Positions 8,823 through 31,633 are shown, counted from the first letter of the stretch. The stretch is 64,000 bases of DNA from a virus (IMGVR_UViG_3300037400_002699:70274-134273); one strand, 5' to 3'. Program-made: numbers and translations. Notes: generated from the sequence alone by a model not told the origin.

Positions 8823-8851
8823 AAATAAATTATAATAACAAATAGAATATT

Positions 8852-11068: not shown

Positions 11069-11134
11069 AAACTAAATGGAACGATATACTTGTTGATTCC
11101 AAATTTATTTCTTACATAAATATACAAAAAGATA

Positions 11135-11164
11135 ATGAGGAATTGTTTAAATACAGTTCCTCAT
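11135..11164. terminator. Repeated hairpin A, copy 1 of 3 (also 16421-16450 and 23942-23971)
   Basis: ATGAGGAATTGTTTRARTACAGTTCCTCAT followed by T-run; near-identical in three places. Confidence 0.85.
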
Positions 11165-11182
11165 TTTTATATCAATTATGAA

Positions 11183-11380
11183 CTAGCAAAGTAATATTAT
11201 AATTCCATAAATAAACACTAATAGACTTATAATAAAGAATATTAGCCAATTCCTTTTTGTGGTTCTAACAGATTCAACATCCGCATGACAGTCTGGGTTG
11301 ATGAGTTTTTTCCTCATGACGAAGAATATAATGATTGACATAATCAAAAATATCCCTCCAAATACTATAAATGGATTCAT
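11183..11380 (-). CDS. Small two-TM membrane protein
   Basis: Two hydrophobic stretches in 65 aa. Confidence 0.65.
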   Translation of the reverse strand: MNPFIVFGGIFLIMSIIIFFVMRKKLINPDCHADVESVRTTKRNWLIFFIISLLVFIYGIIILLC

Positions 11381-11381
11381 A

Positions 11382-12149: not shown

Positions 12150-12150
12150 A

Positions 12151-12816: not shown

Positions 12817-12971
12817 TCACATTAAACGAGTTTTTTGGTAATTCAAACATAGTTTTTAATTTATATATAAATAATAATATTTTATATTAATAAATAAACA
12901 AATTGAAATAGTAAAATATTTATTATATAAAAAGAAATAAAAAATAATTAATAAAATATTTTAAGAAAATT

Positions 12972-14906
12972 ATGGCTATAATTAACAACAATGTAGAGAA
13001 CGTTAAGTTCTTGAGAAACCAAAATCCTTTTGAGTCACGTGAAGCTGCACGTACCGCTTTGGAGAGCAATAAGGGACAAGCTGCTGATGGTACTGCCTTG
13101 CTTGCTCGTTACACCATAACTGACGGACAGACAACAGACGTTAAGACTCTTGTTGGTTTTGTTGCTGAGGTAAATTCAACAAAGTACGTCACAATATTTG
13201 ACGTTGAAGGTGGAAGTGAGGATGTTAATAATCTTCGTGAAGAGATTAATGCAAAACTTGGTACTACTTTCATTAGCTCAAGCAATACTGTAGAGTCAAA
13301 CCTTACTGCTTTAAGTGGTAATAACAGTTCAACAAGTGCTGAGACCTCTGTTGAAGGTGCTAAGAGATATGCTGATGAATTAAAGAATCAGATGGATTAC
13401 AGTGGTGTAACAACTGGAACTGGTGTTTATGTAACAAACGTAACACAGTCTGATGGTATTGTATCTGCAACAACTGCAACCCTTCCAACCGTAACTGGTG
13501 AGGTTGAGTCTAAGAAGGTTGTAATGAGTGTATCTGAGGACAAGGGAGAAATTGCTGTCACTAAGGGTACTATTGAATCTTCTGATAAGACTGTTGTAAT
13601 AGGTGACTTGGCTGAAGGTAATGGTGTTGACTTCAAGGTTAATATTGATGGTGAGACACTTGTTGCTGATACAAGTACTGGTGTGATTAGTGTCGCTTCT
13701 GCTGCTCTTACACAGTATGTTGGCGATGAAGACACCATACACATTTCTGCTGCTGATGCACAGAACAACAAGACTGTTAGTTCACTCCTTACAATTTCAG
13801 CAACAACTCCAAGTGAAGCTAATGTAAAGGAACAGTATAACCTTGTTGGCGCAAGTGGTAATACAATTGGTGCAACTATTAAAATTTATAAGGACAGTGC
13901 ATTGCTTTCAGTTGCATTGTTACACGCTGATACCACAGCAAACCCACAAGTATTGCCAACATATGACAAGGCAACAAATACTTGGACTGATATTGCAGAC
14001 CCAACAGACGAAAACCAAGCATTGTGCTATGCATATGAGGATGTAAGTGGAAACACTGTTGTTGCAGCAGTCCCAGTTGGTGCATTTATCAATGAGCAAG
14101 AGTTTGCAAGTGGTGTTACTTGGGATGCAACTGCAAATAAGGTTAAGGGTGTTGTTGACTCAACTTCAGAAAAGGATTCACAAGACACTCCAGTTGATTT
14201 CTTGACAGTTGGCGCTGATGGTTTCAAGATTAGTGGAATTAAGGATGAGATTGATAGACAACTTGACGCTGTGGTTGAAGACCTTGATGCAACCGTAACT
14301 GGTGAAACAGCAAACCAACATATCACAATTTCCATTGAAGAACTTGATGGTAAACTTGTTCAGAGTGGCTTGACAATCACTGAAAGCAACATTGCAAACG
14401 CTGATGACCTTGCAGAACTTAGTGGAAAGACAGTAACCGCATTGACGTCTACAAATGGTAGTATTACTGCACAGATAGATGATGCTGCTGGCTGCAAGAC
14501 ATATGACATCGAGACTGATGCTGACAAGATTAAGATGAGTGGTTTCACAAGCACTGACGCACTTAGTGGCATTACAGAGGCTGATTCAATCGCAACAGCG
14601 TTTGAGAAGGTGGATGCAGTTATCACAGAGAATGAGCAAGTTACTTCTGAGGCATTGAACGACCTTAACTCTAGAATCAACACAGTTAGTGGCGAGGTTG
14701 AAACTCTTACAACAGACTCACTCAGTGGAATCACAGTTAATGGTACTGCTGTAGCACCATCAAATCACGTTGCTCCATTGGTAATTGATTCTACTTCTGC
14801 TGCAACTGAATCCAGCGATGGTAAGGCAATTACTGTTCAGACTGATGCAAATGGTAACATTACACTTGGAATTTCCTCAATTGATTGTGGCTACTATAGT
14901 GAGTAA
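12972..14906 (+). CDS. Fibre/virion structural protein, paralog of 28913..30733
   Basis: Shared N-domain (LRN...DG...LARY...TLVGF...TIxDVEG); ends IDCGYYSE. Confidence 0.8.
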   Translation: MAIINNNVENVKFLRNQNPFESREAARTALESNKGQAADGTALLARYTITDGQTTDVKTLVGFVAEVNSTKYVTIFDVEGGSEDVNNLREEINAKLGTTFISSSNTVESNLTALSGNNSSTSAETSVEGAKRYADELKNQMDYSGVTTGTGVYVTNVTQSDGIVSATTATLPTVTGEVESKKVVMSVSEDKGEIAVTKGTIESSDKTVVIGDLAEGNGVDFKVNIDGETLVADTSTGVISVASAALTQYVGDEDTIHISAADAQNNKTVSSLLTISATTPSEANVKEQYNLVGASGNTIGATIKIYKDSALLSVALLHADTTANPQVLPTYDKATNTWTDIADPTDENQALCYAYEDVSGNTVVAAVPVGAFINEQEFASGVTWDATANKVKGVVDSTSEKDSQDTPVDFLTVGADGFKISGIKDEIDRQLDAVVEDLDATVTGETANQHITISIEELDGKLVQSGLTITESNIANADDLAELSGKTVTALTSTNGSITAQIDDAAGCKTYDIETDADKIKMSGFTSTDALSGITEADSIATAFEKVDAVITENEQVTSEALNDLNSRINTVSGEVETLTTDSLSGITVNGTAVAPSNHVAPLVIDSTSAATESSDGKAITVQTDANGNITLGISSIDCGYYSE

Positions 14907-16372: not shown

Positions 16373-16510
16373 GATGGTACACAAGGCTAAAAAAAAATAA
16401 TAAATTATAATATACAAAAGATGAGGAATTGTTTGAATACAGTTCCTCATTTTTTATTTCCCTACAAATATTTATTACTATATGATAACTTTAATAATAA
16501 TATAACAATT

Positions 16511-17707
16511 ATGGCAATCTATTTAAAGAAGTTTGAGAATCATACGCAGTATGATAATTACATCAATGGTAGTGGAGCAATACTACCAAATGTATCTATA
16601 TGTGTAACAGAAGGTGATGTGCATTATAATCCTTATGTGTCACCATATGCTGGTTTCTGTAAACTGGTATTAAGCAATGGTGAAACTGTAGAACTTGAAG
16701 GTAGTGGGCGATTAACAAGTGCGCATACAAGAGAATACAGTGCAACAACCGTAAATGCTGAAATTGGCACACAGTGTACAAGTATTGGTGAAAGGACTTT
16801 CTTTCAATGTACTAGTCTTACAAGTTGTACTATAGGAAGTGGCGTTACAAGTATTGGTACATATGCTTTCTATAAATGTAGCGGTCTTACAAATATAGTT
16901 GTGCCTAATAGTGTTACAACTATTGGTTATAATGCTTTCGATAGTTGTAGTAGTCTTACAAGTATAGATATACCAGATAGTGTTATAAGTATTGGCGATG
17001 CTGCTTTCGGTTATTGTACTAGTCTTACAAGTTGTACTATAGGTAGTGGTGTTACAACTATTGGTGATAGTATTTTCCAACGTTGTAGTGGTCTTACAAG
17101 AATGAACAGTGACATTGATGGTGTATTCAACATTCCAAGTGGTGTTACAAGTATTGACCATAATGCTTTCAATAATTGTAGAAGTCTTACAAGTATAGAA
17201 ATACCAAGTGGTGTTACAAGTATTGGCTATGGTGCTTTCTCTGATTGTACTAGTCTTACAAATATAGTTATACCTAATAGTGTTACAACTATTGGTCATT
17301 ATGCTTTCTCTCATTGTACTAGTCTTACAAATATAGTTGTGCCTAATAGTGTTACAACTATTGGTAATAATGCTTTCGGTAGTTGTAGTGGTCTTACAAG
17401 TTGTACCATAGGTAATGGTGTTACAAGTATTGGCGAGGAGGCTTTCACATATTGTAGTAGTCTTACAAGTTGTACCATAGGTAATGGTGTTACAAGTATT
17501 GGTACTTATGCTTTCAGAAAATGTAGTAGTCTTACAAGTATAGTATGTAATGCTACCACATCACCTACAATATCAAGTACTACATTCCGAGATGTCAAGA
17601 CAAGGGGCACATTAACAGTGCCAAGTGGTAGTAGTGGTTATGATGTATGGATGGGTACAGGAAATTATTATCTAGGAAAATATAATTGGACGAAGGTAGA
17701 ACAATAA
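16511..17707 (+). CDS. BspA-type (LRR_5) leucine-rich-repeat protein with shared N-terminal module
   Basis: 23-aa repeats TSIGxxAFxxCxSLTSxxIPxxV; true start is ATG 16511 because ATG 16421 lies inside hairpin A. Confidence 0.9.
   Translation: MAIYLKKFENHTQYDNYINGSGAILPNVSICVTEGDVHYNPYVSPYAGFCKLVLSNGETVELEGSGRLTSAHTREYSATTVNAEIGTQCTSIGERTFFQCTSLTSCTIGSGVTSIGTYAFYKCSGLTNIVVPNSVTTIGYNAFDSCSSLTSIDIPDSVISIGDAAFGYCTSLTSCTIGSGVTTIGDSIFQRCSGLTRMNSDIDGVFNIPSGVTSIDHNAFNNCRSLTSIEIPSGVTSIGYGAFSDCTSLTNIVIPNSVTTIGHYAFSHCTSLTNIVVPNSVTTIGNNAFGSCSGLTSCTIGNGVTSIGEEAFTYCSSLTSCTIGNGVTSIGTYAFRKCSSLTSIVCNATTSPTISSTTFRDVKTRGTLTVPSGSSGYDVWMGTGNYYLGKYNWTKVEQ
16777..17540 (+). repeat. 69-bp LRR tandem repeats (~11 units)
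   Basis: Framework GTTACAAGTATTGGT-NNNNNN-GCTTTC-NNNNNN-TGTAGTAGTCTTACAAGT. Confidence 0.9.
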
Positions 17708-17715
17708 TAATATAA

Positions 17716-17737
17716 GAGTAATCAGAAATGGTTGCTC
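17716..17737 (+). terminator. Repeated hairpin B (also 25448-25469)
   Basis: GAGTAATCAGAAATGGTTRCTC plus T-run after both LRR genes. Confidence 0.8.
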
Positions 17738-17768
17738 TTTTTTTATTTTTGGTTTGATATTTATGTAT

Positions 17769-17954
17769 ATGAAGGAAGATAACAATATAAATTGGGAACA
17801 GATAAGGATTGATGCTAGCATTAATATAATGAATGCCATATTGTCAAGTTCTATTATGGTATTCATATTTCAGTTTATATTCAAGAGGCAGATTGCAGAT
17901 ATTGCGGTTAGTTATGCCAATAAATTGATTGAGGAATTAAAGAAAAACAAATAA
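17769..17954 (+). CDS. Small protein, paralog of 31656..31853
   Basis: INWEQIRIDASINIMNAILSSSIMVFIFQF...AVSYANKLIEELKK. Confidence 0.8.
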   Translation: MKEDNNINWEQIRIDASINIMNAILSSSIMVFIFQFIFKRQIADIAVSYANKLIEELKKNK

Positions 17955-17957
17955 AAT

Positions 17958-20561
17958 ATGAAGTATTTTAGAATATTTAAAGACACTGAGGAATATATAG
18001 AGTATATGGCAAGTCCATACGCTATATTGCCAAATGTGGCGTATTGTAAGGATGGATATAGTTACATAGCAGGAGAAGTAACTCCTCCAACACCTGTGGA
18101 TGTAACTGGTGTAACAATTAATACAGTATCAACCACAATATATGTTGGCTCAACATATCAATTGGTTGCAACAGTATTGCCAATTAATGCAACTGATAAG
18201 GCTGTTACTTGGTCATCAAGTGATAGTACTATCGCTACAGTATCAAATAACGGTTTGGTAACAGCACTTACAACTGGTGCAACAACTATTACAGTAACAA
18301 CACATGATGGAAGCTATACAGCATCTTGCGCAGTAGCTGTAGAAGAGGCTACCGTTACAACATTGACAATTGTTGGAGCACCTTCTATTAGTGCAGAAAC
18401 TTGTAATTATGAGGCAATTGGAGACAATTCAGAAGATGTCACATCATCTGCAACTTGGAGTATTACTTCTGGTTCACAATATGCAACCATTAATCCTAAC
18501 AATGGTATCGTTACCATTTTGAATGGTGCAAATAAATCAAATGTAACAATACAAGCAGAATATGCTGGCTTAACGGCAACTACAAATGTGACGCTGACTT
18601 ATGTTAGTGGGGCTACATCTGAAACTGAAACAGAATCTACAACAGATATTGGTGGCAACACAACTACAGTCACAACAACTGTTACTACAAAACAAGATGG
18701 CTCAAAAGTAGAGGTAACAGAAACTGTTATTACTGATGCCAATGGCGACTTAATTGGTACTAGTAAGAGCAATAAAACTATTAATACTGATGGTTCTTAT
18801 AATGGTACTACAACCAATTATGATGCTGAAGGTAATCCAATGGACGGTAGCAATGTGACTGGTGATACTGAGGGTAATGTAAGCACTCAGACCATTGAAT
18901 ATGATGGTAGCGGTAATGCTACCGTAACTGGATACGATATTGATACAAGTGGTAGTGAAAGTGGTAAGACATTCAATAGTGGTGGTACAAATACAGAATA
19001 TTATGCATTTGACTTAACTCACGGATTTATACTTGACTTTGATTTCACAATTGACTTCAGTAATCAGCCATCTGGCCAAAGTGAAAATCACCATAATATA
19101 TTAACTGCTAAGAGAGCAAATCCAGAACCTTGGTATGGATTCCAAATAAGACAAACTAGTTCAAATAAGTATATACAACTTGGAACACAGTTTACGACTG
19201 GTAGTAATATCAATACAAATATAAATCCATCATCTATTACTGGTAATGTTGGAAGTTATAGTTTGAGAATAGTATATGACCCAAATTTAAGTGGAAATAA
19301 GTTTGTATGCACTAATATGGTAACTGGTAATGAAATTTATAGTAGTACTGGAACATTCCCAGATTTACCAGAGCTTAAATATCTTAGAATAACCATTGGT
19401 AATGCAACTGACGGTGACGGAAATCCTTTCAGATATTCAAACATTACCGTGTCTAAATTTGAATTGAAGAAACTTAAGTATGTTGCTAATCCAACAATGG
19501 CTTATGAGAATGGTACTGTTGTAATAAGTTGTAGTACAGTTGGTGCTAGCATATATTACAGATTGAATTTATCTGGTTCTTACAGTGCATATACAACGCC
19601 AATTACAATAACAGCAGATACTGTTGTCCAAGCATATGCTACATATAGTGGCGACACAAGTGATATAATTAGAGAAGACTTTAAGATAGTTGATGTAACT
19701 GGTGTTACTCTCAGTGACAACTCAATATCAATTATAGAGGGTAGAACATATACCTTATCTGCAACAGTTTTACCAAATAATGCGTTGAATAAAAATGTTA
19801 CTTGGTCATCAAGTGACAGCAATGTTGCCTCAGTAGACTCAAATGGTGTTGTGAGTGGTGTTTCATCTGGTAGTGCTACTATAACAGTAACAACTCACGA
19901 TGGTGGCTATACAGCACAATGTGCAGTTAGTGTATCAGCTTCACCATACACAGAACTTGAATATATTGAAAGTACAAGTGATGGCGGACAATATATTGAT
20001 TTGGATATAAAACTCTATGAAACGCTGAATACATGGTATGATGTTGCGACTAAGTTTATTGTAAAGGGACCTGGTTATGACAACCTCCAACCAACATTAT
20101 TTGGCTGTCAAACCACATCTAAACCTTGGCCTGGCACGTTCATCAGAATGAATTCTATTGATGCGAAAAATGTCATTGGAAGATATATAGGAGGTTCTAA
20201 TAAAGATAACACTTTAGGAAATATAAATGCTATACTAGAATTACCAGTTAGAACAGCACCAGATAAAAACGTGTATAACTTGAACAATAGTAATCAAACA
20301 CACCGTTGGGGTACGTCTTTATTCTGTACTTTTGAAAGCGAGGATAAAACATCAGTAAGTAGGTTTATTAATGCAAGGCTATATTATTTCAAGTTATTCT
20401 TAAAGGCAAGTGCTAGTAGTGAAGGAACATTGGTTAGAGACATGGTTCCTTGCAAGAGAAACTCAGATAATAAGGTAGGTTTACTTGATAAGGTTAATAA
20501 TGTATTCTATGTTTCTCCAAATGGTGCTGAATTTGTTGGAGGACCAGAAGCTAGTGTATAA
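17958..20561 (+). CDS. Multidomain adhesin: shared N-module, two Big_2 Ig-like domains, chitobiase/Fn3-associated-like domain, C-terminal ConA/LamG-like domain
   Basis: VTGVT...LxATVLPxNAxxKxVTWSSSD twice; IYYRLN...YTTPITI; LEYIEST...QYIDL...LVRDMVP. Confidence 0.85.
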   Translation: MKYFRIFKDTEEYIEYMASPYAILPNVAYCKDGYSYIAGEVTPPTPVDVTGVTINTVSTTIYVGSTYQLVATVLPINATDKAVTWSSSDSTIATVSNNGLVTALTTGATTITVTTHDGSYTASCAVAVEEATVTTLTIVGAPSISAETCNYEAIGDNSEDVTSSATWSITSGSQYATINPNNGIVTILNGANKSNVTIQAEYAGLTATTNVTLTYVSGATSETETESTTDIGGNTTTVTTTVTTKQDGSKVEVTETVITDANGDLIGTSKSNKTINTDGSYNGTTTNYDAEGNPMDGSNVTGDTEGNVSTQTIEYDGSGNATVTGYDIDTSGSESGKTFNSGGTNTEYYAFDLTHGFILDFDFTIDFSNQPSGQSENHHNILTAKRANPEPWYGFQIRQTSSNKYIQLGTQFTTGSNINTNINPSSITGNVGSYSLRIVYDPNLSGNKFVCTNMVTGNEIYSSTGTFPDLPELKYLRITIGNATDGDGNPFRYSNITVSKFELKKLKYVANPTMAYENGTVVISCSTVGASIYYRLNLSGSYSAYTTPITITADTVVQAYATYSGDTSDIIREDFKIVDVTGVTLSDNSISIIEGRTYTLSATVLPNNALNKNVTWSSSDSNVASVDSNGVVSGVSSGSATITVTTHDGGYTAQCAVSVSASPYTELEYIESTSDGGQYIDLDIKLYETLNTWYDVATKFIVKGPGYDNLQPTLFGCQTTSKPWPGTFIRMNSIDAKNVIGRYIGGSNKDNTLGNINAILELPVRTAPDKNVYNLNNSNQTHRWGTSLFCTFESEDKTSVSRFINARLYYFKLFLKASASSEGTLVRDMVPCKRNSDNKVGLLDKVNNVFYVSPNGAEFVGGPEASV

Positions 20562-20582
20562 CGTCATTTAATAATATAAAAT

Positions 20583-23500
20583 ATGAAATATACAAAATTA
20601 TTTAACAATCACAATGAATACGTGGCGTATACTGGTAGTACTGCATTTATACGCCCAAACGTATCATATTGCATATTAGAGGATGAACCTCACTGTACAC
20701 CTCAGCATTTCTGCCAGGAAGTTCATATATATGAGCTTATGGGAGAACCATCATACCCTTCAAGCGTTCCAGCAAGCGCAACATCATTTGATTTGTCGTT
20801 CAGTTATACTGATACATACACATCAACAACGTGCGACCAAGGAAGCTTTATGGATGGAGACACAGTGACAATACCAATTGAGGAAAACCCATCAATGTCA
20901 GCAAGGACAATAAGCGGAACTTATGTTTTCCACGATATAAACATACCTTATAGTTTTACACAAGAAGGTAGGGAAGAATTGCCATATAATCAGCAGTATC
21001 TTACATTTGAGATATTGACTGGTGGAACTATACTATGGAAGGCAGCAACTACTGCTGTGACTAGAACAATATCATACAGCGTGAACTATGGGGAATGGAC
21101 TGAAATAACCTCTTCAACTGATGGAGTTGCAATTAATGTAAGTGCTGGTGACAAAGTTAGATTTAAAGGAACTAACCAAGCATATGGAACAGCAAAAGAT
21201 ACTGTTTCCACATTTAGCGGAAGTACCGCATCATTTGATGCATATGGTAATGCAATGAGCCTTATCGGTGGTGATGATTTCAGTGGTTTAACATCATTTA
21301 CTACAGATTGGGCGTTCCACGATTTGCTCAACACAACCAATGTTGTATCAGCGAAGAATTTGATATTGCCAGTTACAACTCTTAGAAGTTATTGCTATCG
21401 TGCAATGTTCGCACACGCAAAACAGCTCGTAGAAGCGCCAGAGCTTCCTGCAACCACATTGGCTGCTAGTGGATATTGCTATATGTTCCAAGAATGTACA
21501 GCATTGCAGAAAGCACCAGACCTATTGGCTGAGAATATTGTTGGCGGCTGTTACATTGGTATGTTCAATAGCGCAAGCACGTTGAACTACATCAAATGTA
21601 CTGCAACTGGTGGTGTTACAACTGGAAACACCAAAGACTGGACAAAGACCGTATCAAATACTGGTACGTTTATAAGGGCATCTAATGTGAATTGGACAAG
21701 GGATGTAAATGGTGTTCCTGCTAGTTGGGAATTATATAATGATACAAACGTTGAAGCACCAACCATCTCATTTAATGGCTTTGAAACAATAACATTGTCT
21801 TGTGAAACTGAAGGTGCTGATATATTGTATAAACTAAATGATACAGGAGAATACAGTGCGTATACAACACCTATAATAATAAGCGAAGATACATTCATTG
21901 AAGCTTATGCTACATATAGCGGAGAGACAAGTAGACCAATAAGTCAGACTTGTGTATATGTGAGTGATGTTCCTATTGAATACTCAAACAGAGACCTTAA
22001 GAAATGGCAGTATGGAGGACAAGAGATTACAACCCCATATTCTGTTAACGCAATTGACGGACATTCTTCAAGTTATGCAAAGGGAACATTTACATTTGAA
22101 ACAAGTTTTGCGTTAAAGGAAGCAGAACCAACATATCTATGGTTTCAACACGCTGACCAATCAGCGGAGATATACATTGACAATACATTGGTTGAAAAGC
22201 ACTGGGGAGGATATGCTGCATTCACAAGCGATATATCAGAATATGTTCACGAAGGTATTAATAGCGTAAAAGTTGCAATCAAGAACAATGAAGGTAATAA
22301 CCTTGCGCCAGCAAGTGCTGACTTCAACTTCAATGCGACTCTTGGTAATGTAAGGTTGCTTACAAGTCCATATGTTCCAGCAATGGAATATGGATATGAC
22401 GGTTTCCATATCACTTCAACAGTGTCTGACGCAGAGGCAACTGTCAATATAAGGACAAGTGTTCCAACTGGTGCTACGTTGGTTTGTAAGATTGATGATG
22501 GTAATACCAATATATATTCTGCAACAAGCGCAAGTACTGGTGAGGAAATGACATTCACAAAGGTTATTGCAAACCCTCATCTATGGAATGGTAAATCAGA
22601 CCCATATATGTATACAGTTACACTTGAGATATATGAAGGCAATGACTTGTATCATAGGTTTGTAAGACCTTATGGATTGAGATACTATGAATATGTAATC
22701 AATGATACTGAAAAAGTCGGAACAGTAAGTGAACCATATACTGGTTTCTTGCTCAATGGCTCTCCATATCTTCTTAGAGGTTGTTGTATGCACGATGACA
22801 TAGATGGAAAGGCAAACGCATTGGATGAAACGGATTATGATAATACATTCGCTACCATACAAGAATTGGGGCTTAACTTCTTAAGGCTTGCTCACTATCC
22901 TCATCCGAAGGAGGTATATGACAGATGTGACAGACTTGGTATCGTAGTTCATACTGAAGGCCCTTGTGTTAATAAACTTCAGTCAACAATGCCAGCTGAT
23001 TATTATACACACTTGACTGGTCAGTATACAGATATGGTTAATCAGCATTACAATCACCCTTGTATTTTCTTCTGGGGTCTTAGCAATGAGACGCAAACTG
23101 ATGACAAGAACTTCGGTAAACAGAAGGTAGAGGAATACACAGCACTCATCAAGAGTCTTGACTCTGAGAGGATGGTAGGTTATGTACTTGCACAAGGAAA
23201 CGGTACAAGTCCAAGTGCATATTACAATGACCCATCCAACGTTGACTGGTTCGGATGCAACATATATGTGGGGTGGTACGACAGTCCAAATTCTAATACT
23301 CCTGTGTCTCAGATTAACACACGTCTTAACAATACCATCAATAGGGTTGGCAAACCAATGGCATACTCTGAGTATGGTTGTGGTGGTACTCCAACTTGTC
23401 ACTCAGATGATTACATGACAACTACTACAAGGGGTAACAAACCACGTCACGATATTGAATATATGATGTGGTTGCACGAAGGTCATATTGCAACTATAAA

Positions 23501-23936
23501 GCAATATCCTCAACTATTGTATACATCACAGTGGCAGTTGTTTGATATTGCAGTTGCAAGCAGAAATGAGGGATATACAGAATGTCTTGACGGTGTGAAT
23601 ACATCAACGAATGATGCTCTTAGGAGACTCAATGACAAGGGACTTGTGGAGAGAGACCACGTTACAAAGAAAGACCCATTCTATCTATATAAGGCTTGGT
23701 GGAATACGACACCGTTTGTGCATATATGTCAGAAAAACTATACAAAGATGACTGATAGGGTTATCAAGTGCTACACAAACCAGACAACTGAGTTTGCGTT
23801 AAAAGTAAACGGAACAACGGTTGAAACAAAGGCAGCAACTGATAACATTCTTACGTTTACAGGACATACATTCAGTAGTGGTGATGTAGTAACCGTTGAG
23901 AGTGGTAATATTAGTGATACATTTACATTTGAATAA
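20583..23936 (+). CDS. Glycoside hydrolase family 2 catalytic domain fused to shared N-module, BACON-like domain, short LRR-like repeats and Fn3-associated domain
   Basis: HWGGYAAF, FLLNG..Y.LRG, LRLAHYPH, YDRCDRLGI, NHPCIFFWGLSNE (acid/base), YSEYGCG (nucleophile), KGLV..D...KKDPFYLYKAWW. Confidence 0.9.
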   Translation: MKYTKLFNNHNEYVAYTGSTAFIRPNVSYCILEDEPHCTPQHFCQEVHIYELMGEPSYPSSVPASATSFDLSFSYTDTYTSTTCDQGSFMDGDTVTIPIEENPSMSARTISGTYVFHDINIPYSFTQEGREELPYNQQYLTFEILTGGTILWKAATTAVTRTISYSVNYGEWTEITSSTDGVAINVSAGDKVRFKGTNQAYGTAKDTVSTFSGSTASFDAYGNAMSLIGGDDFSGLTSFTTDWAFHDLLNTTNVVSAKNLILPVTTLRSYCYRAMFAHAKQLVEAPELPATTLAASGYCYMFQECTALQKAPDLLAENIVGGCYIGMFNSASTLNYIKCTATGGVTTGNTKDWTKTVSNTGTFIRASNVNWTRDVNGVPASWELYNDTNVEAPTISFNGFETITLSCETEGADILYKLNDTGEYSAYTTPIIISEDTFIEAYATYSGETSRPISQTCVYVSDVPIEYSNRDLKKWQYGGQEITTPYSVNAIDGHSSSYAKGTFTFETSFALKEAEPTYLWFQHADQSAEIYIDNTLVEKHWGGYAAFTSDISEYVHEGINSVKVAIKNNEGNNLAPASADFNFNATLGNVRLLTSPYVPAMEYGYDGFHITSTVSDAEATVNIRTSVPTGATLVCKIDDGNTNIYSATSASTGEEMTFTKVIANPHLWNGKSDPYMYTVTLEIYEGNDLYHRFVRPYGLRYYEYVINDTEKVGTVSEPYTGFLLNGSPYLLRGCCMHDDIDGKANALDETDYDNTFATIQELGLNFLRLAHYPHPKEVYDRCDRLGIVVHTEGPCVNKLQSTMPADYYTHLTGQYTDMVNQHYNHPCIFFWGLSNETQTDDKNFGKQKVEEYTALIKSLDSERMVGYVLAQGNGTSPSAYYNDPSNVDWFGCNIYVGWYDSPNSNTPVSQINTRLNNTINRVGKPMAYSEYGCGGTPTCHSDDYMTTTTRGNKPRHDIEYMMWLHEGHIATIKQYPQLLYTSQWQLFDIAVASRNEGYTECLDGVNTSTNDALRRLNDKGLVERDHVTKKDPFYLYKAWWNTTPFVHICQKNYTKMTDRVIKCYTNQTTEFALKVNGTTVETKAATDNILTFTGHTFSSGDVVTVESGNISDTFTFE

Positions 23937-24034
23937 TATTAATGAGGAATTGTTTGAGTACAGTTCCTCATTTTTTATTTTTCATCAAATATTTATATAG
24001 AAATGAATAATAAGTTTTAAACAATATAACTAAT

Positions 24035-25432
24035 ATGGCAATTTATTTAAAGAAATTCAGTACTCATCAAGAGTATGAGGCGTTCACAGCTACAACAGCA
24101 TTCATAAAACCTAACGTATCAATATGTACAACAGAAGGTGATGTGCATTACAACCCACTTAAATGCGAAGAGTCATCAACGTATGAACTCGTTGGCACTC
24201 CTTCATATCCATCAGAGGTGGATGGAGCAAACACATCATTCGATATGACATTCAATTATAAAAGGACTGACATAAATGAGAAATGTAAAGAGACGATTAC
24301 AGAAGGCAGTGACACTGTAACTGTAGAGATTGGCACAAATCCAAGCACAGCAAGTTCAAGGACAGTTGAAGGCACTTATGACTATCATGGATTGGAGATT
24401 GCATACAGCGTTACGCAGACCAAGTTTGAAGCTAAGATAACTGCAAAAGTTAATGTAACTGATACAAGCAGTCCAACGAGGATTGCAAGTGGTACAAGTA
24501 ATATCTCTGCTATTGAGATAGATGGTGTCAAGCAAGGCAGTGTAACGACTGGCTATACGTTTGATGCTGTTGGTGAACATACAGTTAAGTATACATTGAA
24601 AGACCAAACAAGTATTGGCCGATATGATTTTGCTGGTTGTAGTAGTCTTACAAGTATAGATATACCAAATAGTGTAACAAGTATTGATAGTAGTACTTTC
24701 GAACGTTGCAGTGGTCTTACAAGTTGTACCATAGGTAGTGGTGTTACAAGTATTGGTCAGAGTGCTTTCTCTTATTGTACTAGTCTTACAAGTATAGATA
24801 TACCAAGTGGTGTTACAAGTATTGGTCAGAGTGCTTTCAATGGTTGTAGTAGACTTACAAGTTGTACAATAGGTAATGGTGTTACAAGTATAGGTAATTA
24901 TGCTTTCGTTTCTTGTAGAAGTCTTACAAGTATAGATATACCAAGTGGTGTTACAAGTATTGGTCAGAGTGCTTTCCAAGATTGTAGTAGTCTTACAAGT
25001 ATAGATATACCAAGTGGTGTTACAAGTATTGGTCGGAGTGCTTTCGATTTTTGTAGTAGTCTTACAAGTATAAACATACCAAATGGTGTTACAAGTATTG
25101 GTCAGAGTGCTTTCTTGAATTGTAATAGTCTTACAAGTATAGATATACCAAGTGGTGTTACAAGTATTGGTAATAGTGCTTTCTCTTATTGTAGTAGTCT
25201 TACAAGCATAGAAATCCCAAGTGGTGTTACAAGTATTGGTGATGAAACTTTCAGATATTGTACTAGACTTACAAGTGTAACAATTAATGCAACCACACCT
25301 CCAACATTGGTAGCCAGCGCTTTTTATAACACTAACAATTGTCCGATATATGTTCCATCAGCGAGTGTTGAAACATATAAGTCTACAAGTGGTTGGAGTT
25401 CGTATGCAAGTAGAATACAAGCAATACCTTAA
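24035..25432 (+). CDS. BspA-type LRR protein with shared N-module and BACON-like domain
   Basis: ~10 LRR_5 units; C-cap TTPPTL...IYVPSASVETYK..GWS. Confidence 0.9.
   Translation: MAIYLKKFSTHQEYEAFTATTAFIKPNVSICTTEGDVHYNPLKCEESSTYELVGTPSYPSEVDGANTSFDMTFNYKRTDINEKCKETITEGSDTVTVEIGTNPSTASSRTVEGTYDYHGLEIAYSVTQTKFEAKITAKVNVTDTSSPTRIASGTSNISAIEIDGVKQGSVTTGYTFDAVGEHTVKYTLKDQTSIGRYDFAGCSSLTSIDIPNSVTSIDSSTFERCSGLTSCTIGSGVTSIGQSAFSYCTSLTSIDIPSGVTSIGQSAFNGCSRLTSCTIGNGVTSIGNYAFVSCRSLTSIDIPSGVTSIGQSAFQDCSSLTSIDIPSGVTSIGRSAFDFCSSLTSINIPNGVTSIGQSAFLNCNSLTSIDIPSGVTSIGNSAFSYCSSLTSIEIPSGVTSIGDETFRYCTRLTSVTINATTPPTLVASAFYNTNNCPIYVPSASVETYKSTSGWSSYASRIQAIP
24608..25280 (+). repeat. 69-bp LRR tandem repeats (~10 units)
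   Basis: Same nucleotide framework as 16777-17540. Confidence 0.9.
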
Positions 25433-25601
25433 ACGGTATATATTAAGGAGTAATCAGAAATGGTTACTCTTTTTTATTTGTTTTATGATATTTATATAGA
25501 AAGATATATTTTAATAGATTTTTAAACAAGCTGGTATTCTTACCAATTTTTGAAATCTATATTTCTAATAATAAAAACTATTAAAAAAATAATAAGAAAT
25601 T

Positions 25602-28600
25602 ATGACAAAAAATGCAAATTATGTCTCTCATAAGAAGAGCAAACAAATTGTTGACGGTAAGCCAAAACTACCGTTGGCATCTGCGTTGGTTGAAGGTGAG
25701 ATAGCCGTCAACTTCGGTAAAGATGTTGAAACATTGTCAATCAAGAATGAGAGCGGTGATGTCGTGACATTCTCATCTGACAACTATTACACTGAGAAGA
25801 AACTTGGTAGTGGATTTACTGGTGCAAACAGTGCAGTAACTGTAACAGATGTTATAGAAGAAAACGAGGAAATAATTGCTGCTGCTTTGACAGACCTCGA
25901 TGAAAGGAAACTAGATGCATCAGCATATACGGAACTTTGGGAAGCTGGCACTGGTGAAAATTCAGTTATTCTAAAGAATAGCAATAATGTTGCAAGTGGC
26001 ATTTCATCAGTTGCTGAAGGTAGTGGTACAACAGCAAGCGGTAATTATTCTCACGCAGAAGGTAATAATACAACAGCAAGTGGCTATTATTCTCACGTTG
26101 AAGGATATAACACAATAGCAAGCGGCTCACCTTCTCACGCTGAAGGTATATATACACAAGCAATCGCCAGCGCTTCTCACGCTGAAGGATATGGCACAAT
26201 AGCAAGTGGCTCACCTTCTCATGCTGAAGGATTTAATACAATGGCAATTGCTAACTATTCACACGCTGAGGGGTATCAAACAAGAGCATTTGGATATACA
26301 TCACATACTGAAGGATATTATACAACAGCAAGTGGTAATTCTTCTCACGCTGAAGGGTATTATACAACAGCAAGTGGTGATACTTCTCATGCTGAAGGAC
26401 ATTATACAACAGCAAGTGGTGATTATTCTCATGCTGAAGGACAAAGTACAAAAGCAATTGGAGGTCAATCTCATGCTGAAGGATATTATACAACAGCAAG
26501 TGGCTATTACTCACATACGGAAGGACAAAGAACAATAGCAAGCGGTAATTCTTCTCACGCAGAAGGACAAAGTACTAGTGCAACTAGTTATGCTTCTCAT
26601 GCTGAAGGTAGTAGTACAATAGCAAGTGGTGATTCTTCTCACGCTGAAGGAGCAAGTACAAGTGCGACAAGCCTATATTCTCACGCTGAAGGTTATCTAA
26701 CAAAAGCAAGTGGAAATCATGGCTCTCACGCAGAAGGACAAAGTACTAGTGCAACAAGTATATCTTCTCACGCTGAAGGTTATGGCACAATAGCAAGTGG
26801 TAACTATTCTCACGCTGAAGGACAAAACACAACAGCAAGTGGCAGCCGTTCTCACGCAGAAGGTAATAATACAGTAGCAAGTGATAATTCTTCTCACGCT
26901 GAAGGACAAAACACAACAGCAAGTGGTAATTCTTCTCACGCTGAAGGGTATTATGCAACAGCAAGTGGTAACTATTCTCACGCTGAAGGACAAAACACAA
27001 CAGCAAGTGGTGGCCGTTCTCACGCAGAAGGGCAAAGTACTAGTGCAACAAGTTATGCTTCTCATGCTGAAGGTAGTAGTACAATAGCAAGTGGTAATTA
27101 TTCTCACGCAGAAGGTAATAATACAACAGCAGGTGGTAATTATTCTCACGCCGAAGGATATAGTACGACGGCAAATAACGATTCAGAACATGCAAGTGGT
27201 CAGTATAATGTAAGTTATAGTGCCACAACCACATTTGGTGACAGCGGTAATACATTATTCTCAGTTGGTAATGGAAACTATAGCGCACCTCATAATGCGT
27301 TTGAAATAAGGCAGAATGGCGATATTTACATAACAAGTGGTGGTACAGTAACAAGTTCACCGATTAAGTTACAGGATTATATTGGTGGAGGAGGAAGTAT
27401 TACTGTTGACCAGGTATTGGATGACACCACATCAGCTTCAACAAACCCAGTATCAAGCAAGGCTGTATATAAGGCTGTAACTGACAATGAGCTTGTATGG
27501 ACAAATGCATATGTCACATTGAGTGGTACTGTAAGCGCACATACTGCGAATACTGAAATACACGTCACTGCTGCTGATAAGGAGAAATTACACACAATAA
27601 CTGGTTCTGTTGGTACAATGGCATATGAGAATGCTAACTCATATTCTAGTGCGACTGAGGTTAATACAGCATTGGGAAATAAGGCAAATACAGCAACAAC
27701 ACTTGCGGGGTATGGCATAACTGATGCATATACCAAGTCTGAGACAAGTGGAGCTACTGAGATTAGTAATGCATTAAGTGGAAAGGTTGACAGTGCAACA
27801 TATAATACGCATACTGGTGATACAACAATACACTTCACCACTGGAGCAGTACAGACACAGATTGATAATTCAATTAGTGGAAAAGTTAATACAAGTGACA
27901 TTATCAGTGCAATTACATCTTCAAACAGTGGCTCAACAGCACCAATTGCAACAAAGGTTGTCGCTGAGAATGAATTGACTGTATCAAATGCGTTGAATGA
28001 TTTGAATACAACAATCACAGCACATACAGCAGATACAAGTATACACGTGACACAAGCATTGCTTGATAGGATTGCTTACCTTGAAAGTAAGGTAATATAC
28101 AATGGCCACGATTATGTTGAGATTGGTGGTCTTAAGTGGGCAACAATGAACATTGGTGCTTCGCAGCCAAGTGATTATGGCTTATACTTTGCTTGGGGTG
28201 ACACACAAGGCTACACTGCTGAACAAGTAGGTAGTGGTGAAGGACAGAAATACTTTGGTTGGGCAGACTATAAGTACGGTAATGGTACAAGCTCACCAGG
28301 TGCTACAGGAATGACCAAGTATAATGCCACCGATGGCTTAACAACACTTGAGGCTGTTGATGATGCTGCTGTTGCTAATTGGGGTGGCAGTTGGCGTATG
28401 CCAACAACTGCTGAATTCCAAGCTCTTGGTGCTGCCGTAAACACTGCATGGACTCAAGTTAACAATGTATATGGTATATTATGCACAGATAAAACAGATA
28501 GTTCCAAGACATTATTCTTCCCTGCTGCTGGCTTCTGTTACAATGGCAGTGTCAGGAACGTAGGCAATGACGGTGACTATTGGTCTAGTTCTCTTATCAC

Positions 28601-28709
28601 TAATAATAGGCAGCTCGCCTACGTCTTGGCCTTTTACAGTAACGATGCTCGCTGGGGTAACAGCAACTACCGCTCCTGCGGCTGCGCAGTTCGCCCTGTG
28701 GTTGGTTGA
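25602..28709 (+). CDS. Trimeric receptor-binding fibre: Mtd_N-like N-terminus, YadA/Hep_Hag-like SHAEG repeats, stalk, C-terminal CLec-fold DGR-target domain
   Basis: LVEGEIAVN; ~28 14-aa SHAEGxxTxASGxx units; KWATMNIGA...GLYFAWG...WRMPT...FFPAAG...YWSSS...AVRPV. Confidence 0.88.
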   Translation: MTKNANYVSHKKSKQIVDGKPKLPLASALVEGEIAVNFGKDVETLSIKNESGDVVTFSSDNYYTEKKLGSGFTGANSAVTVTDVIEENEEIIAAALTDLDERKLDASAYTELWEAGTGENSVILKNSNNVASGISSVAEGSGTTASGNYSHAEGNNTTASGYYSHVEGYNTIASGSPSHAEGIYTQAIASASHAEGYGTIASGSPSHAEGFNTMAIANYSHAEGYQTRAFGYTSHTEGYYTTASGNSSHAEGYYTTASGDTSHAEGHYTTASGDYSHAEGQSTKAIGGQSHAEGYYTTASGYYSHTEGQRTIASGNSSHAEGQSTSATSYASHAEGSSTIASGDSSHAEGASTSATSLYSHAEGYLTKASGNHGSHAEGQSTSATSISSHAEGYGTIASGNYSHAEGQNTTASGSRSHAEGNNTVASDNSSHAEGQNTTASGNSSHAEGYYATASGNYSHAEGQNTTASGGRSHAEGQSTSATSYASHAEGSSTIASGNYSHAEGNNTTAGGNYSHAEGYSTTANNDSEHASGQYNVSYSATTTFGDSGNTLFSVGNGNYSAPHNAFEIRQNGDIYITSGGTVTSSPIKLQDYIGGGGSITVDQVLDDTTSASTNPVSSKAVYKAVTDNELVWTNAYVTLSGTVSAHTANTEIHVTAADKEKLHTITGSVGTMAYENANSYSSATEVNTALGNKANTATTLAGYGITDAYTKSETSGATEISNALSGKVDSATYNTHTGDTTIHFTTGAVQTQIDNSISGKVNTSDIISAITSSNSGSTAPIATKVVAENELTVSNALNDLNTTITAHTADTSIHVTQALLDRIAYLESKVIYNGHDYVEIGGLKWATMNIGASQPSDYGLYFAWGDTQGYTAEQVGSGEGQKYFGWADYKYGNGTSSPGATGMTKYNATDGLTTLEAVDDAAVANWGGSWRMPTTAEFQALGAAVNTAWTQVNNVYGILCTDKTDSSKTLFFPAAGFCYNGSVRNVGNDGDYWSSSLITNNRQLAYVLAFYSNDARWGNSNYRSCGCAVRPVVG
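26006..27190 (+). repeat. 42-bp (14-aa) tandem repeats, ~28 units
   Basis: TCTCAYGCWGAAGG-N7-ACAACAGCAAGTGG framework. Confidence 0.92.
28521..28709 (+). other. Putative DGR variable region VR1
   Basis: Abrupt shift to NNC/NNT codons at the positions that are AAY in Bacteroidota DGR templates. Confidence 0.75.
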
Positions 28710-28912
28710 CGAATCAAAACTGACGTTTGTTTCAACACAGCTATAGCTGTATGGTAATTCATCATACAACCATATGATTTGGATAATAGATTTCAATTCT
28801 GTTAGAAATATTATTTATTTGCATAATATTTTTATATTTGAATTTGATATTTATTATTAAATGTAACAATTAACAAAAATAGATAATAAATTAATAAAAT
28901 ATTTTAAAAATT

Positions 28913-30733
28913 ATGATTAAGAATCTTTATTCACTAGGGCTTTTACGTAACGGTAAGGTCTATTCTAACAAGGAATTGGCAGCTCAAGGCTTGAAACAAT
29001 CAGCAACAAACGATGGTGTTGCAAAGTTGGCTCGTTATTTAGCCCCTGTTGCTGGTGGAGACACAATCATCCGTACATTGGTAGGCTTCTATGCAAATGC
29101 TGATGAAATGGAGGACAATGGCGGTGGTAAATCATACTACACCATTCTTGACGTTGAAGGAAGTGCAGCAGATGTTGAGGAAATCAAAGAAGAAGTCGCT
29201 AAAATCAATGAGTTAATTGGTGATGGAATTAGTGGCACTACTCTTACAGACGCAATCAACGACATCAATGACAGAATCGGTAGTGGTTTCTCTGAGGACT
29301 TTACAGTAGCAGATGCATTGGTAGCACTTGCTGATGAGTTGGAAGACAAACTAACAGTTTCTCTTGATGTTGCAGGAGAACCTGCAAGCGGTTTTCTTAA
29401 GACTTATATCCTTTCACAAGGAACTGGTACTGGCAAGACTGAGATTGGACGCATTGACATTCCAAAAGACCTTGTGGTAACTGAAGGTAAACTAGTACAC
29501 GGTACTTGGAGTGGCGATACGTTTACAGAGGATGAGGAAGGTCCTGATACCGCTATCAAACTTGTGATTGCAAACCAAGAAGACCCTGTATACATCAACA
29601 CCAAAGACCTTGTTGATTATTACACGGCAGGAAATGGTATTGATATTGACAATACACATAATACCATTTCAATCAAGTATAATACCCACAGTGAGAGATT
29701 CCTTGTTGTAGACGAGGATGGTATTAGGGTTGAGGGCATACAAGCAGCAATCGACAAGAAGGCTGACGAAGAGAGACTTGAGGCAAGTGATGGCATTTCA
29801 ATCGCTTCAAACAAGGTTAAGGCTGTTGCAGCAGGATATTCAGCTCCAGCAATAAAGAACCCAATCACAGTTGATAAGGACGGTATCAAGTTTGCAAACA
29901 TACTTGATTGTGGATTCTTCGATGACGAAACTGAGATTGTTTCTACAGCAGAGGATATTAACGCAATCGCAGACCCACAGAATACTGATGTGTTCATCAA
30001 CGGTGACGGAGCATTGAATGCACTTACAGATAAGAAGACATTCAAGAACATTGAAGTTAGTGACGTTGACGCAAATCAGCAGATTTACCTTTATGCGGCA
30101 GAGTCAATCAACGTTGATGGTATGGAAGTAACTGGAACAAAGGGTTCAACAAACGGATATGTTAACTATAGCGCACCTGTAATTAACATTTCTAATCTTT
30201 CAATTGCAAATGGTTCAACAGCATATAACATATTTGAGGGAGACCAAGCAAATCAGAACCTTGATGAATTAAATGCGCAGTATGTAACAGTTGACAACCC
30301 ATCACTTACGCACAACGTGTTCAATGTTTATAAGCCAAAAGATAATGCTGTAATCAATATTTCTGACTCTAAGTTTAATTTGACTGCTGAAAATTCCAAC
30401 ATTTTGAGAGTAAGCAACTATGCTAATGCTACAAATGTTACAGTTAACTTCGAAAACGTAGATTGGACATATGAGAATGGACTAACGAAAGATAATTGGC
30501 GTTGGGCAGGATTAGTTATCTATCAACCAGCAGGCGGTGATGCAGGACTTAGTGGCAATTTGGATGCAATGAAGACCTGGAAGTTCAACTTCATTAACTG
30601 CAAATACAATGGTGTTAAGGTGACTGCAAATAACTTCGGTGAACATAACCAGGTATTCTACATGTACAATGTAGGTGGAGACGGAAGCATAAAAGACCCA
30701 GTTGAAAATGGTTTGATATTGAGCTTCGAATAA
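28913..30733 (+). CDS. Fibre/virion structural protein, paralog of 12972..14906, with extra C-terminal beta-rich domain
   Basis: Shared N-domain; internal ILDCGFF motif followed by an Asn-rich beta-helix-like domain. Confidence 0.8.
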   Translation: MIKNLYSLGLLRNGKVYSNKELAAQGLKQSATNDGVAKLARYLAPVAGGDTIIRTLVGFYANADEMEDNGGGKSYYTILDVEGSAADVEEIKEEVAKINELIGDGISGTTLTDAINDINDRIGSGFSEDFTVADALVALADELEDKLTVSLDVAGEPASGFLKTYILSQGTGTGKTEIGRIDIPKDLVVTEGKLVHGTWSGDTFTEDEEGPDTAIKLVIANQEDPVYINTKDLVDYYTAGNGIDIDNTHNTISIKYNTHSERFLVVDEDGIRVEGIQAAIDKKADEERLEASDGISIASNKVKAVAAGYSAPAIKNPITVDKDGIKFANILDCGFFDDETEIVSTAEDINAIADPQNTDVFINGDGALNALTDKKTFKNIEVSDVDANQQIYLYAAESINVDGMEVTGTKGSTNGYVNYSAPVINISNLSIANGSTAYNIFEGDQANQNLDELNAQYVTVDNPSLTHNVFNVYKPKDNAVINISDSKFNLTAENSNILRVSNYANATNVTVNFENVDWTYENGLTKDNWRWAGLVIYQPAGGDAGLSGNLDAMKTWKFNFINCKYNGVKVTANNFGEHNQVFYMYNVGGDGSIKDPVENGLILSFE

Positions 30734-30757
30734 GCGAAATAATATCTTATTAATAAT

Positions 30758-30794
30758 AAAAGGATAACCCAAGCGTTATGGGTTATCCTTTTTT
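30758..30794 (+). terminator. Intrinsic terminator
   Basis: AAAAGGATAACCCA...TGGGTTATCCTTTTTT. Confidence 0.85.
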
Positions 30795-30874
30795 ATTGGG
30801 AACGATATACCTGTTGATACAAAACTCAAATAAAACAAACACTTCGTAATATTTATATAGAAAGAAATAATATT

Positions 30875-31633
30875 ATGAAATATCTAAAGAAATTTGAGAA
30901 TTATGCTTCTTATGAGGAAGCTAGACAAAATTTAATTTTGCCTAATGTAAGTTTCTGTGAGCAAGAGAATGAGGTATATTATAATCCTTATGTTGACCCT
31001 TATAACGGTCATGCATATGTTGACCTTGGTTTGCCAAGCGGCACGAAATGGGCAACGATGAATGTCGGAGCAACGAAACCAGAGGAATATGGACTGTATT
31101 TCGCTTGGGGAGATACACAAGGTTATACAGCAAGTCAAGTTGGTAGTGGTGAAGGACAGAAGGCATTCGCTTGGGCTGATTATAAGTGGAGCGAAGATGG
31201 TGGTACAACCATGTCCAAGTACAATGCAACAGATGGTAAGACCATATTAGACATTGAGGATGATGCTGTGGCAGTTGCTTGGGGCGGCAGTTGGAAGACA
31301 CCTACTGCGGAGCAGTTCCAAGAGTTGATTGATAATACCGAAAAAAGGTGGACAAGTCGTACTGTTGAAAACACTACGGTAAACGGTTATGAGTTTGCTA
31401 AGTCTGGAGACGCAACCTTTAGTGGAGATACACTCTTCATTCCTGCCGCTGGTGACGCTGACCGTGGCGGTATATACAATGTAGGTAAATTAGGCGGCAT
31501 CTGGAGTAGTTCTCTCTACAGTTCTAGTGATGGGTTCGGTCTCAGCTTGTACTTCAGTAGTGGCTATGGTGCTAGCGTGTACAATCTCAGCGTCCGTTGC
31601 AACGGATACTCTGTTCGTGGCGTGGTTGGTTAA
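30875..31633 (+). CDS. Shared N-module fused to a CLec-fold DGR-target domain
   Basis: MKYLKKFEN...LPNVSFC; YVDLGLPSGTKWATMNVGA...FIPAAG...WSSSL...GYSVRGV. Confidence 0.88.
   Translation: MKYLKKFENYASYEEARQNLILPNVSFCEQENEVYYNPYVDPYNGHAYVDLGLPSGTKWATMNVGATKPEEYGLYFAWGDTQGYTASQVGSGEGQKAFAWADYKWSEDGGTTMSKYNATDGKTILDIEDDAVAVAWGGSWKTPTAEQFQELIDNTEKRWTSRTVENTTVNGYEFAKSGDATFSGDTLFIPAAGDADRGGIYNVGKLGGIWSSSLYSSSDGFGLSLYFSSGYGASVYNLSVRCNGYSVRGVVG
31442..31633 (+). other. Putative DGR variable region VR2
   Basis: NNC/NNT-rich, locally GC-elevated 3' end with the same protein framework as VR1. Confidence 0.7.

Follow-up and report, generated by a model that had tools for sequence, protein, structure and literature searches.

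A large family of short N-terminal modules on exchangeable adhesins and enzymes of uncultured jumbo phages: a candidate virion anchor

Introduction

Why do five genes of one phage, whose products are otherwise unlike each other, start with the same short stretch of protein? This question is raised by a stretch of viral DNA of 64,000 nucleotides (IMGVR_UViG_3300037400_002699:70274-134273; the window), which makes up the final 64 kb of a linear 134-kb IMG/VR record that is 45% complete. Five of its genes share an N-terminal module of about 40 residues, behind which lie different domains, here called payloads. A reading of the window made from the sequence alone (the sequence-only reading) had proposed that the module is a dockerin-like tag that attaches interchangeable adhesins and enzymes to a common site on the virion.

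A common module in five genes

The five genes are all on the + strand, and translation and alignment place the module at residue 1 of each product. The E-values below are from a hidden Markov model (HMM) of the five modules and, for LRR_5, from Pfam.

16511..17707, + strand: gene 1, module (16511-16633, 41 residues; HMM E 4e-25) and BspA-type leucine-rich repeats (LRR_5, E 1e-92)
17958..20561, + strand: gene 2, divergent module without HYNP (17958 to about 18074; HMM E 4e-18), two Big_2 domains and unassigned domains
20583..23936, + strand: gene 3, module (20583-20702), a domain of about 90 residues, CHB_HEX_C_1 and glycoside hydrolase family 2 (GH2) domains
24035..25432, + strand: gene 4, module (24035-24157), a domain of about 90 residues and LRR_5
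30875..31633, + strand: gene 5, module (30875-30988, 38 residues) and a payload with a C-type-lectin fold

Residues Y4, F8, Y14, I24, P26, N27, V28 and C31 (gene 1 numbering) are invariant across the five modules. When the HMM was searched against the six-frame translation of the 134-kb record, it matched exactly these five genes (E 4e-18 to 3e-25) and no further copy, the next match having an E-value of only 0.9, which excludes chance as the source of the similarity. As the DNA of the modules contains many synonymous differences, the conservation acts on the protein and does not reflect recent copying of DNA. The start codon of gene 1 is the ATG at 16511. A longer open reading frame (ORF) that begins at 16421 was discarded, because its first codons cross a terminator hairpin that is duplicated upstream of gene 4.

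The module is not hydrophobic, with a GRAVY score of -0.2 to -0.8 and a best 12-residue window of at most 1.5, and the module proteins have no signal peptide, as they contain no hydrophobic stretch or h-region. A lipoprotein or surface-export signal, considered on account of the cysteine followed by acidic residues, was rejected, since there is no h-region and the cysteine is missing in divergent members. The module had no match in Pfam (E<=10) or PHROGs (E<=1), a profile search of PDB sequences found nothing (best E 0.46), and searches of the whole module proteins against NCBIfam returned nothing on the module. Translation, alignment and the HMM thus confirm the starting observation of the sequence-only reading, that five genes begin with a common module, and two further statements of that reading also stand: the module is not hydrophobic and hence not a signal peptide, and it lies outside any named family, with no match in Pfam, PHROGs, PDB sequences or PDB folds.

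A large family in metagenomes

A profile of the five modules was searched exhaustively against 1.84 billion cluster representatives (clusters at 50% identity). It matched 1,932 protein clusters at E<=1e-3, of which 502 were matched at E<=1e-10, a wide family with varied fused domains; the sequence-only reading had proposed such a search of gut phage catalogues. In nearly all of the best 150 matches the module starts at residue 1-3, in proteins of 38-1,582 residues. The payloads in these best 150 matches comprised 52 LRR_5, 7 Big_2, 6 Lcl_C, 3 GH2 and 1 hexapeptide-repeat domains, while many resembled nothing known, and no Pfam family covered the module itself in any of them. This reveals that the module is a very large, new and undescribed N-terminal domain family.

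An alignment of 253 members, which is biased to high scorers, showed F, Y, P-N and C to be invariant, and V-S as well as K5, H10, V36, H37, Y38 and P40 (profile numbering) to be nearly invariant. In divergent members the cysteine and the HYNP end are replaced. The module subtype of gene 2 ('MKYFRIF') also occurs in four other loci (L005, L007, L008 and L020). Two complete relatives of 412 kb and 401 kb contain at least 7 and at least 14 module copies, respectively. A 33-codon ORF in genome G001 (L007:2129-2227) corresponds to the first 27 module residues only, and represents a decayed copy between two intact module genes of 254 residues each.

No module copy was found in GenBank phages (tblastn with two module queries), so no cultured carrier is at hand. 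A protein-based scan of bacterial genomes gave no module match, and a pattern scan of bacterial sequences identified 11 contigs with a module, all from metagenome-assembled genomes (MAGs), one of which contains phage capsid contigs. Rumen and faecal samples are the source of the carrier contigs, which have often been assigned to bins of Prevotellaceae or Bacteroidales MAGs. The ESM Atlas gave two weak leads from which we draw no claim, a cluster of 37-residue proteins of which 39% of the members have Phage_tail_C, and DUF1737 at a TM-score of 0.52.

Payloads are exchanged behind the module

To compare modules with payloads, we used all pairs among 210 members in which the module is complete and the payload has 100 residues or more. 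Even where two modules were at least 90% identical, 553 of 973 pairs (57%) had payloads without blastp similarity. The share of homologous payloads was little affected by module identity, being 0.43 among modules at least 90% identical and 0.33 among those less than 60% identical, and the divergence between proteins begins right behind HYNP. As far as sequences can tell, module and payload are therefore uncoupled. The claim of the sequence-only reading that one module heads interchangeable adhesins and enzymes is borne out beyond the window by these pairs and by the 1,932 clusters.

The predicted structure also sets the module apart. In the AlphaFold2 model of a 252-residue module protein, it consists of a strand (4-7), a helix (10-19) and a hairpin (24-28/33-37) at a pLDDT of 72-77, and forms a separate unit ahead of the lectin domain (pLDDT 97). 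Folded alone with 74 sequences, the module kept the helix and the hairpin (pLDDT 77). The module alone gave no meaningful fold match (Foldseek best E 2; exhaustive VIA-align best Z 2.4). Of its 40 residues, about 12 are hydrophobic or aromatic and conserved, which seems to exceed what the core of a 40-residue monomer needs and would point to an interface. A metal or disulfide site made of C31, H11 and H38 was considered and rejected, as the histidines are singly replaced without covariation and the cysteine is missing in divergent members.

Identity of the payloads

In Pfam searches, LRR_5 repeats of the BspA type were found in genes 1 and 4, two Big_2 domains in gene 2, and a full GH2 set (sugar-binding, immunoglobulin-like and TIM barrel parts) in gene 3. 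The GH2 part of gene 3 is closest to the NCBIfam beta-glucuronidase and beta-galactosidase models, with scores under their cut-offs. It carries NE (residues 835-836) and SEYG (929-932), which we take to sit where GH2 enzymes hold their two catalytic glutamates. The domain of about 90 residues that follows the module is common to genes 3 and 4, with 47% identity over 130 residues.

The payload of gene 5 had no Pfam match. Its AlphaFold2 model (pLDDT 97) aligns to Mtd, the target of a diversity-generating retroelement (DGR), and to Legionella Lcl-C, formylglycine-generating enzymes and C-type lectins. The best VIA-align result (Mtd; Z 7.0, rmsd 4.0, 134 residues aligned) indicates a C-type-lectin fold like those of Mtd and Lcl_C. 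The payload is 51% identical to the C-terminal tip of a long fibre encoded at 25602-28709, so that one type of lectin tip is found both on a long fibre and directly on a module. No DGR machinery was found in the 134-kb record, which is 45% complete: it contains no reverse transcriptase (RVT_1) and no template repeat, and neither lectin 3' end recurs in it.

The payload labels of the sequence-only reading thus need partial revision. The leucine-rich repeats of genes 1 and 4, the immunoglobulin-like part of gene 2 (as two Big_2 domains), the GH2 enzyme of gene 3 and the C-type-lectin fold of gene 5 were recovered, whereas the 'lectin' part of gene 2 matches nothing. A BACON domain had been named in gene 4, where residues 42-195 have no Pfam match even at E<=1, and that label is unsupported. 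Likewise, the record as it stands, 45% complete, offers neither reverse transcriptase nor template repeat that would justify calling gene 5 'DGR-type'.

A possible virion anchor

What the module does has to be judged together with its surroundings. The window contains the following head and fibre genes:

295-987, - strand: gp21-type prohead protease (Peptidase_S77)
2835..4871, + strand: T4 gp23-type major capsid protein
6384..14906, + strand: three long fibre genes (6384, 8852 and 12972) with other N-terminal types
11382-12816, - strand: glycosyltransferase-like genes that interrupt the fibre genes, including DUF4422 at 11382-12170
25602..30733, + strand: two more fibre genes, both module-free (25602 and 28913), of which 25602 has YadA-head-like repeats and the lectin tip

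A gp20-type portal and a T4-type large terminase are encoded just upstream of the capsid gene. The module genes are co-oriented with the head genes (terminase, portal, protease and capsid), lie 3' of them and are interleaved with fibre genes. A comparable layout was found in L035, L005 and G002, where fibre genes and two module genes follow the capsid gene in G002.

On balance, we consider it probable that the module anchors interchangeable adhesins and enzymes to the virion, so that the interpretation given by the sequence-only reading is supported in part. This reading rests on the strict N-terminal position, the purifying selection, the fixed junction, the exchange of surface-binding payloads that lack export signals, the neighbourhood of head and fibre genes, the promoter-like motif that genes 1, 4 and 5 have in common with the capsid gene, and the lectin tip found on both a fibre and a module; the binding to the virion itself is the part that we infer. 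The module would be a self-folding N-terminal mini-domain of about 40 residues (strand, helix and beta-hairpin), and each phage would make 5-14 proteins that have this head piece in common and carry unrelated ligand-binding or glycan-cutting domains behind it. The payload set would include BspA-type leucine-rich repeats, Big_2, the C-type-lectin fold, the GH2 glycosidase and several unassigned domains. Lacking a signal peptide, the proteins would be synthesised in the cytoplasm, probably alongside the capsid and fibre proteins, and this lack fits assembly onto particles there. The module would bind one kind of site on the particle, and recombination right behind it would swap payloads while leaving the attachment untouched. 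As there are many paralogues, the payloads look like monomers and the genes are close to head genes, a site on the capsid or neck that offers many equivalent positions fits at least as well as a baseplate socket.

Several observations weigh against an anchor. A socket domain of the T4 gp9/gp10 type was not found in genomes G000-G003 (PF07880, which covers the N-domain only; G000, the record of the window, is 45% complete), and no partner for the module was identified. In G002, one of the two complete relatives, several module copies have non-structural neighbours, such as methylases, a sigma-like gene and an amidase. In the other, G001, a distance of 50 kb separates the module cluster from the capsid gene, and one of 220 kb from the gp25 baseplate gene. 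The structural context is therefore not universal. An intact module-LRR gene is found in a Prevotella chromosome as the passenger of an IS1595 insertion sequence (IS), where, short of infection by a phage, it is hard to see what a virion anchor would be for. Finally, docked receptor-binding proteins are typically trimeric fibres or spikes, which the payloads are not.

The G002 copies among non-structural genes, the Prevotella copy, the missing partner and the monomeric look of the payloads would all suit an alternative in which the module proteins are not part of the virion but soluble adhesins and enzymes that are freed at lysis or act in the infected cell, the module then having some other role, such as the binding of a host or phage factor or the stabilisation or regulation of the payload. 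We regard this as unlikely, as a strict N-terminal position, very strong conservation and payload exchange at a fixed junction are hallmarks of attachment modules, in four genomes the module genes are grouped with those for capsid and fibres, and the lectin tip is common to a true fibre. Rather less likely still, the module might chiefly be an oligomerisation unit or folding nucleus that joins payload chains, with or without docking. Small trimerisation units such as the foldon of T4 fibritin are common in phage fibre proteins, and a 40-residue domain that is rich in conserved hydrophobic residues is unlikely to be stable alone. However, LRR, Big_2 and GH2 payloads need no trimerisation, and the local Foldseek matches of the full P0005 model to the multiplexin (collagen XV/XVIII) trimerisation domain (3hsh and 3n3f; probability 0.98-0.99 over 35-36 columns) were lost with the module-only model, so that candidate was rejected. 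Co-folding of the module as a homotrimer (3 x 48 residues), run without controls, gave a score of 0.01 and a mark of 0.42 and speaks neither for nor against oligomerisation.

Two further alternatives were considered. Glycosyltransferase-like genes lie in or beside module clusters in three lineages, the P-N-V-S core includes the sequon N-x-S, and in many members of the LRR type N-V-T follows directly on the module, all of which could mean that an assembly chaperone, or a modifying enzyme of the phage that adds glycans, for example, uses the module as a recognition or acceptor tag. Nevertheless, gene 2 has P-N-V-A and thus no sequon, the whole 40-residue fold is conserved beyond the sequon, and nothing ties these enzymes to protein substrates, which makes a modification tag very unlikely. 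In T4, unrelated internal proteins have a common short N-terminal targeting sequence, and the carrier phage encodes a gp21-type protease (Peptidase_S77) and a gp23-type capsid protein; the module could accordingly be imagined as a capsid-targeting propeptide that is cut by the T4-type prohead protease. We give this hardly any credence, since (L/I)-x-E is not conserved (the residue three before the conserved glutamate that directly follows the cysteine is T, I, V, E, K or A), and the inside of a capsid is no sensible place for lectins, LRR adhesins, immunoglobulin-like domains and a glycosidase.

Comparison with known systems

If the module is a virion anchor, it follows a principle, conserved N-terminal attachment with swappable distal parts, that is already known from smaller phages. 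That receptor-binding proteins (RBPs) have conserved N-terminal anchors or docking peptides and exchangeable distal parts is well established (PMC6872550), and branched RBP systems have been described for the Klebsiella KP32, KP34, Menlow and PhiK64-1 groups, K1-5/SP6, G7C and CBA120 (Latka et al. 2019, PMC6872550). Jumbo phages with hyperbranched fibres (PMC9700779, PMC10253068) and Bacteroidota jumbo phages with capsid-borne fibres (PMC13282480) are also known. The module proteins resemble branched RBPs (PMC6872550) in that an N-terminal stretch is conserved while the remainder is unrelated and horizontally exchanged, in that a genome encodes several such proteins, most of all in jumbo phages, and in that their genes lie in the structural region. 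Unlike the branched systems, the N-terminal stretch here is a folded mini-domain of 40 residues with no sequence relation to docking peptides, and the payloads are LRR, immunoglobulin-like, lectin and GH2 domains rather than trimeric beta-helix depolymerases. There are up to 14 copies per genome, and the T4gp10-like socket of branched systems was not found in G000-G003.

The capsid decoration proteins T5 pb10 and T4 Hoc each combine a small capsid-binding domain with an exposed immunoglobulin-like domain and are single genes. Here, too, a small attachment domain would be joined to adhesin-like domains without a signal peptide, in genes near the head genes, and many equivalent capsid sites would explain why many paralogues have one tag. 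No similarity to pb10 or Hoc in sequence or fold was detected (PDB profile E 0.46, Foldseek E 2, VIA-align Z 2.4), and those single genes differ from the families of 5-14 genes with swapped payloads described here.

The likeness to dockerins and cohesins is one of concept only, in that one small module is found on many enzymes and binders. Dockerins are duplicated calcium-binding segments of about 70 residues that are usually C-terminal and on secreted proteins, whereas the module had no Pfam match of any kind at E<=10, and thus none to the dockerin repeat (Dockerin_1). The annotated neighbours include no evident scaffoldin with repeated sockets, although no systematic search was made. The module thus lacks the sequence features of dockerins, and the 'cellulosome-like' surface of the sequence-only reading remains an analogy.

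Transposon-borne copies

Some module-LRR genes are mobile units. In L032 (9841-12083), a module-LRR gene and a DDE_Tnp_IS1595 transposase lie inside perfect inverted repeats of 25 bp, which together form a unit of 2,243 bp that was found in two more contigs with different flanks. A related unit of about 3 kb (L038:8965-11979) is present in a Prevotella chromosome in two independent assemblies, between the serine dehydratase and isocitrate dehydrogenase/aconitase genes, and has kept ATATTTAT, a promoter-like motif described below, before its module gene. The terminal inverted repeats of the module-LRR units are 25-35 bp long. Another Prevotellaceae contig contains a truncated module remnant only. 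Judged by the sequences of these units, module-LRR cassettes travel as passengers of IS1595 transposons, which is new here. A trace of such an element was also found in the window:

30798..30822, + strand: solo terminal inverted repeat of the IS1595 family, with 2 mismatches to the 25-bp end of L032

This repeat is 53 nt upstream of gene 5 and had 0 matches in 100 shuffles. As the window contains neither a transposase nor a second IS1595 end, the repeat is a solo remnant. The related loci resemble known IS1595 transposons with passengers, in that a module-LRR gene and a transposase lie between inverted repeats. The window has a solo end only, and most module genes have no adjoining IS.

A further and more speculative extension, which we would rank as improbable, combines these cassettes with the anchor. 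The module would then be the plug of a multivalent display, in which up to 14 different adhesins and enzymes compete for one repeated socket on the capsid or on fibres near the head, and the IS1595 cassettes would pass between phage and Prevotella genomes and be switched on by an infecting phage. If true, each 400-kb phage particle would have a mixed surface, and host-borne adhesin genes that kept the phage-type promoter motif would be loaded onto the particles of the infecting phage.

Gene neighbourhood and carrier phages

The following regulatory features accompany the module genes:

16468..16475, + strand: promoter-like motif ATATTTAT, 43 nt before gene 1
17714..17739, + strand: terminator-like hairpin after gene 1

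The motif ATATTTAT is also found, among other sites, at 23989 (gene 4), 30849 (gene 5), 2786 (capsid gene), 1119, 6342, 12916 and 28847 (fibre genes). It precedes its gene, be it the capsid gene, a fibre gene or one of module genes 1, 4 and 5, by 26-66 nt. In the form (A/G)ATATTTAT(A/T), it recurs before module genes of related genomes and inside the IS units, and is a candidate phage promoter element, perhaps a late one. Similar terminator-like hairpins lie at 23941-23972, 25445-25472 and 31838-31866, and with such hairpins between them the module genes form separate cassettes.

The capsid protein of the window is 91% identical to that of the complete 412-kb relative and 83% to that of the complete 401-kb one, and these two genomes carry gp25-type baseplate genes, one of them also a sheath-like gene. 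The carrier phages are jumbo myoviruses, and this family of T4-type myoviruses of about 400 kb probably infects Prevotella or other Bacteroidales of the rumen and gut. The nearest capsid proteins of cultured phages, from Flavobacterium and Microcystis phages, are less than 42% identical. In two rumen contigs of 327 kb and 279 kb, module genes lie among fibres of three or four N-terminal types (coiled-coil and others) and glycosyltransferase-like genes on the minus strand. The distant lineage G003 has 25 of the 263 ORFs of G000 in common (about 10%, at 30-45% identity), including module genes, lectins and fibre parts, and this comparison gave no convincing candidate for a socket. Its four cysteine-less modules adjoin a fibre gene and glycosyltransferase- and epimerase-like genes (labels read from the N-termini).

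Glycosyltransferase-like genes were seen in or near fibre and module clusters of three lineages, at 11382-12816 (- strand) in the window, at L035:10854-13011 and at G003:187646-190772. The set in L035 comprises DUF4422, GT2/GT92-like genes (Pfam) and a radical SAM gene. Glycosylation of the virion by the products of such genes is possible.

The fibre genes 6384, 8852, 12972, 25602 and 28913 have further classes of N-termini that recur across genomes, such as that of 12972 and 28913 and that of 25602 with 'GEIAVNF...SIKN', which form a second layer of common N-termini. The N-terminus of fibre 6384 (F-x-x-H-x-E-Y-x-x-F) is like the first half of the module; we took this as chance, as the HMM gives it no score. 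The C-terminal half of the fibre encoded at 8852-11068 (residues 425-738) is 56% identical to a gene in G003, and set against the small share of common ORFs this suggests horizontal exchange of a fibre tip.

Two paralogous proteins of 61-65 residues, each with one hydrophobic helix and about 76% identical to each other, are encoded next to module genes (17769-17954 and 31656-31853), and homologues precede the 'MKYFRIF'-type gene in L005 and L008; they may be holin-like. They were rejected as a general partner of the module, as they are present beside only some module genes. An HNH/homing-endonuclease gene (14940-16304, - strand) is inserted between fibre 12972 and gene 1, and related loci contain GIY-YIG, T5orf172 or IS elements at comparable places.

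Implications

With about 1,900 clusters at 50% identity, the module is among the largest unannotated domain families that are tied to phage surface proteins. Its IS1595-borne copies tie these phages to Prevotella and constitute one route by which adhesin cassettes move. Should the module prove to be an anchor, it would identify the accessory adhesins and enzymes that uncultured Bacteroidales phages of about 400 kb encode, and would provide a sequence handle with which to list their binding capacity. Foreign domains, too, could then be loaded onto such particles by means of this compact natural tag.

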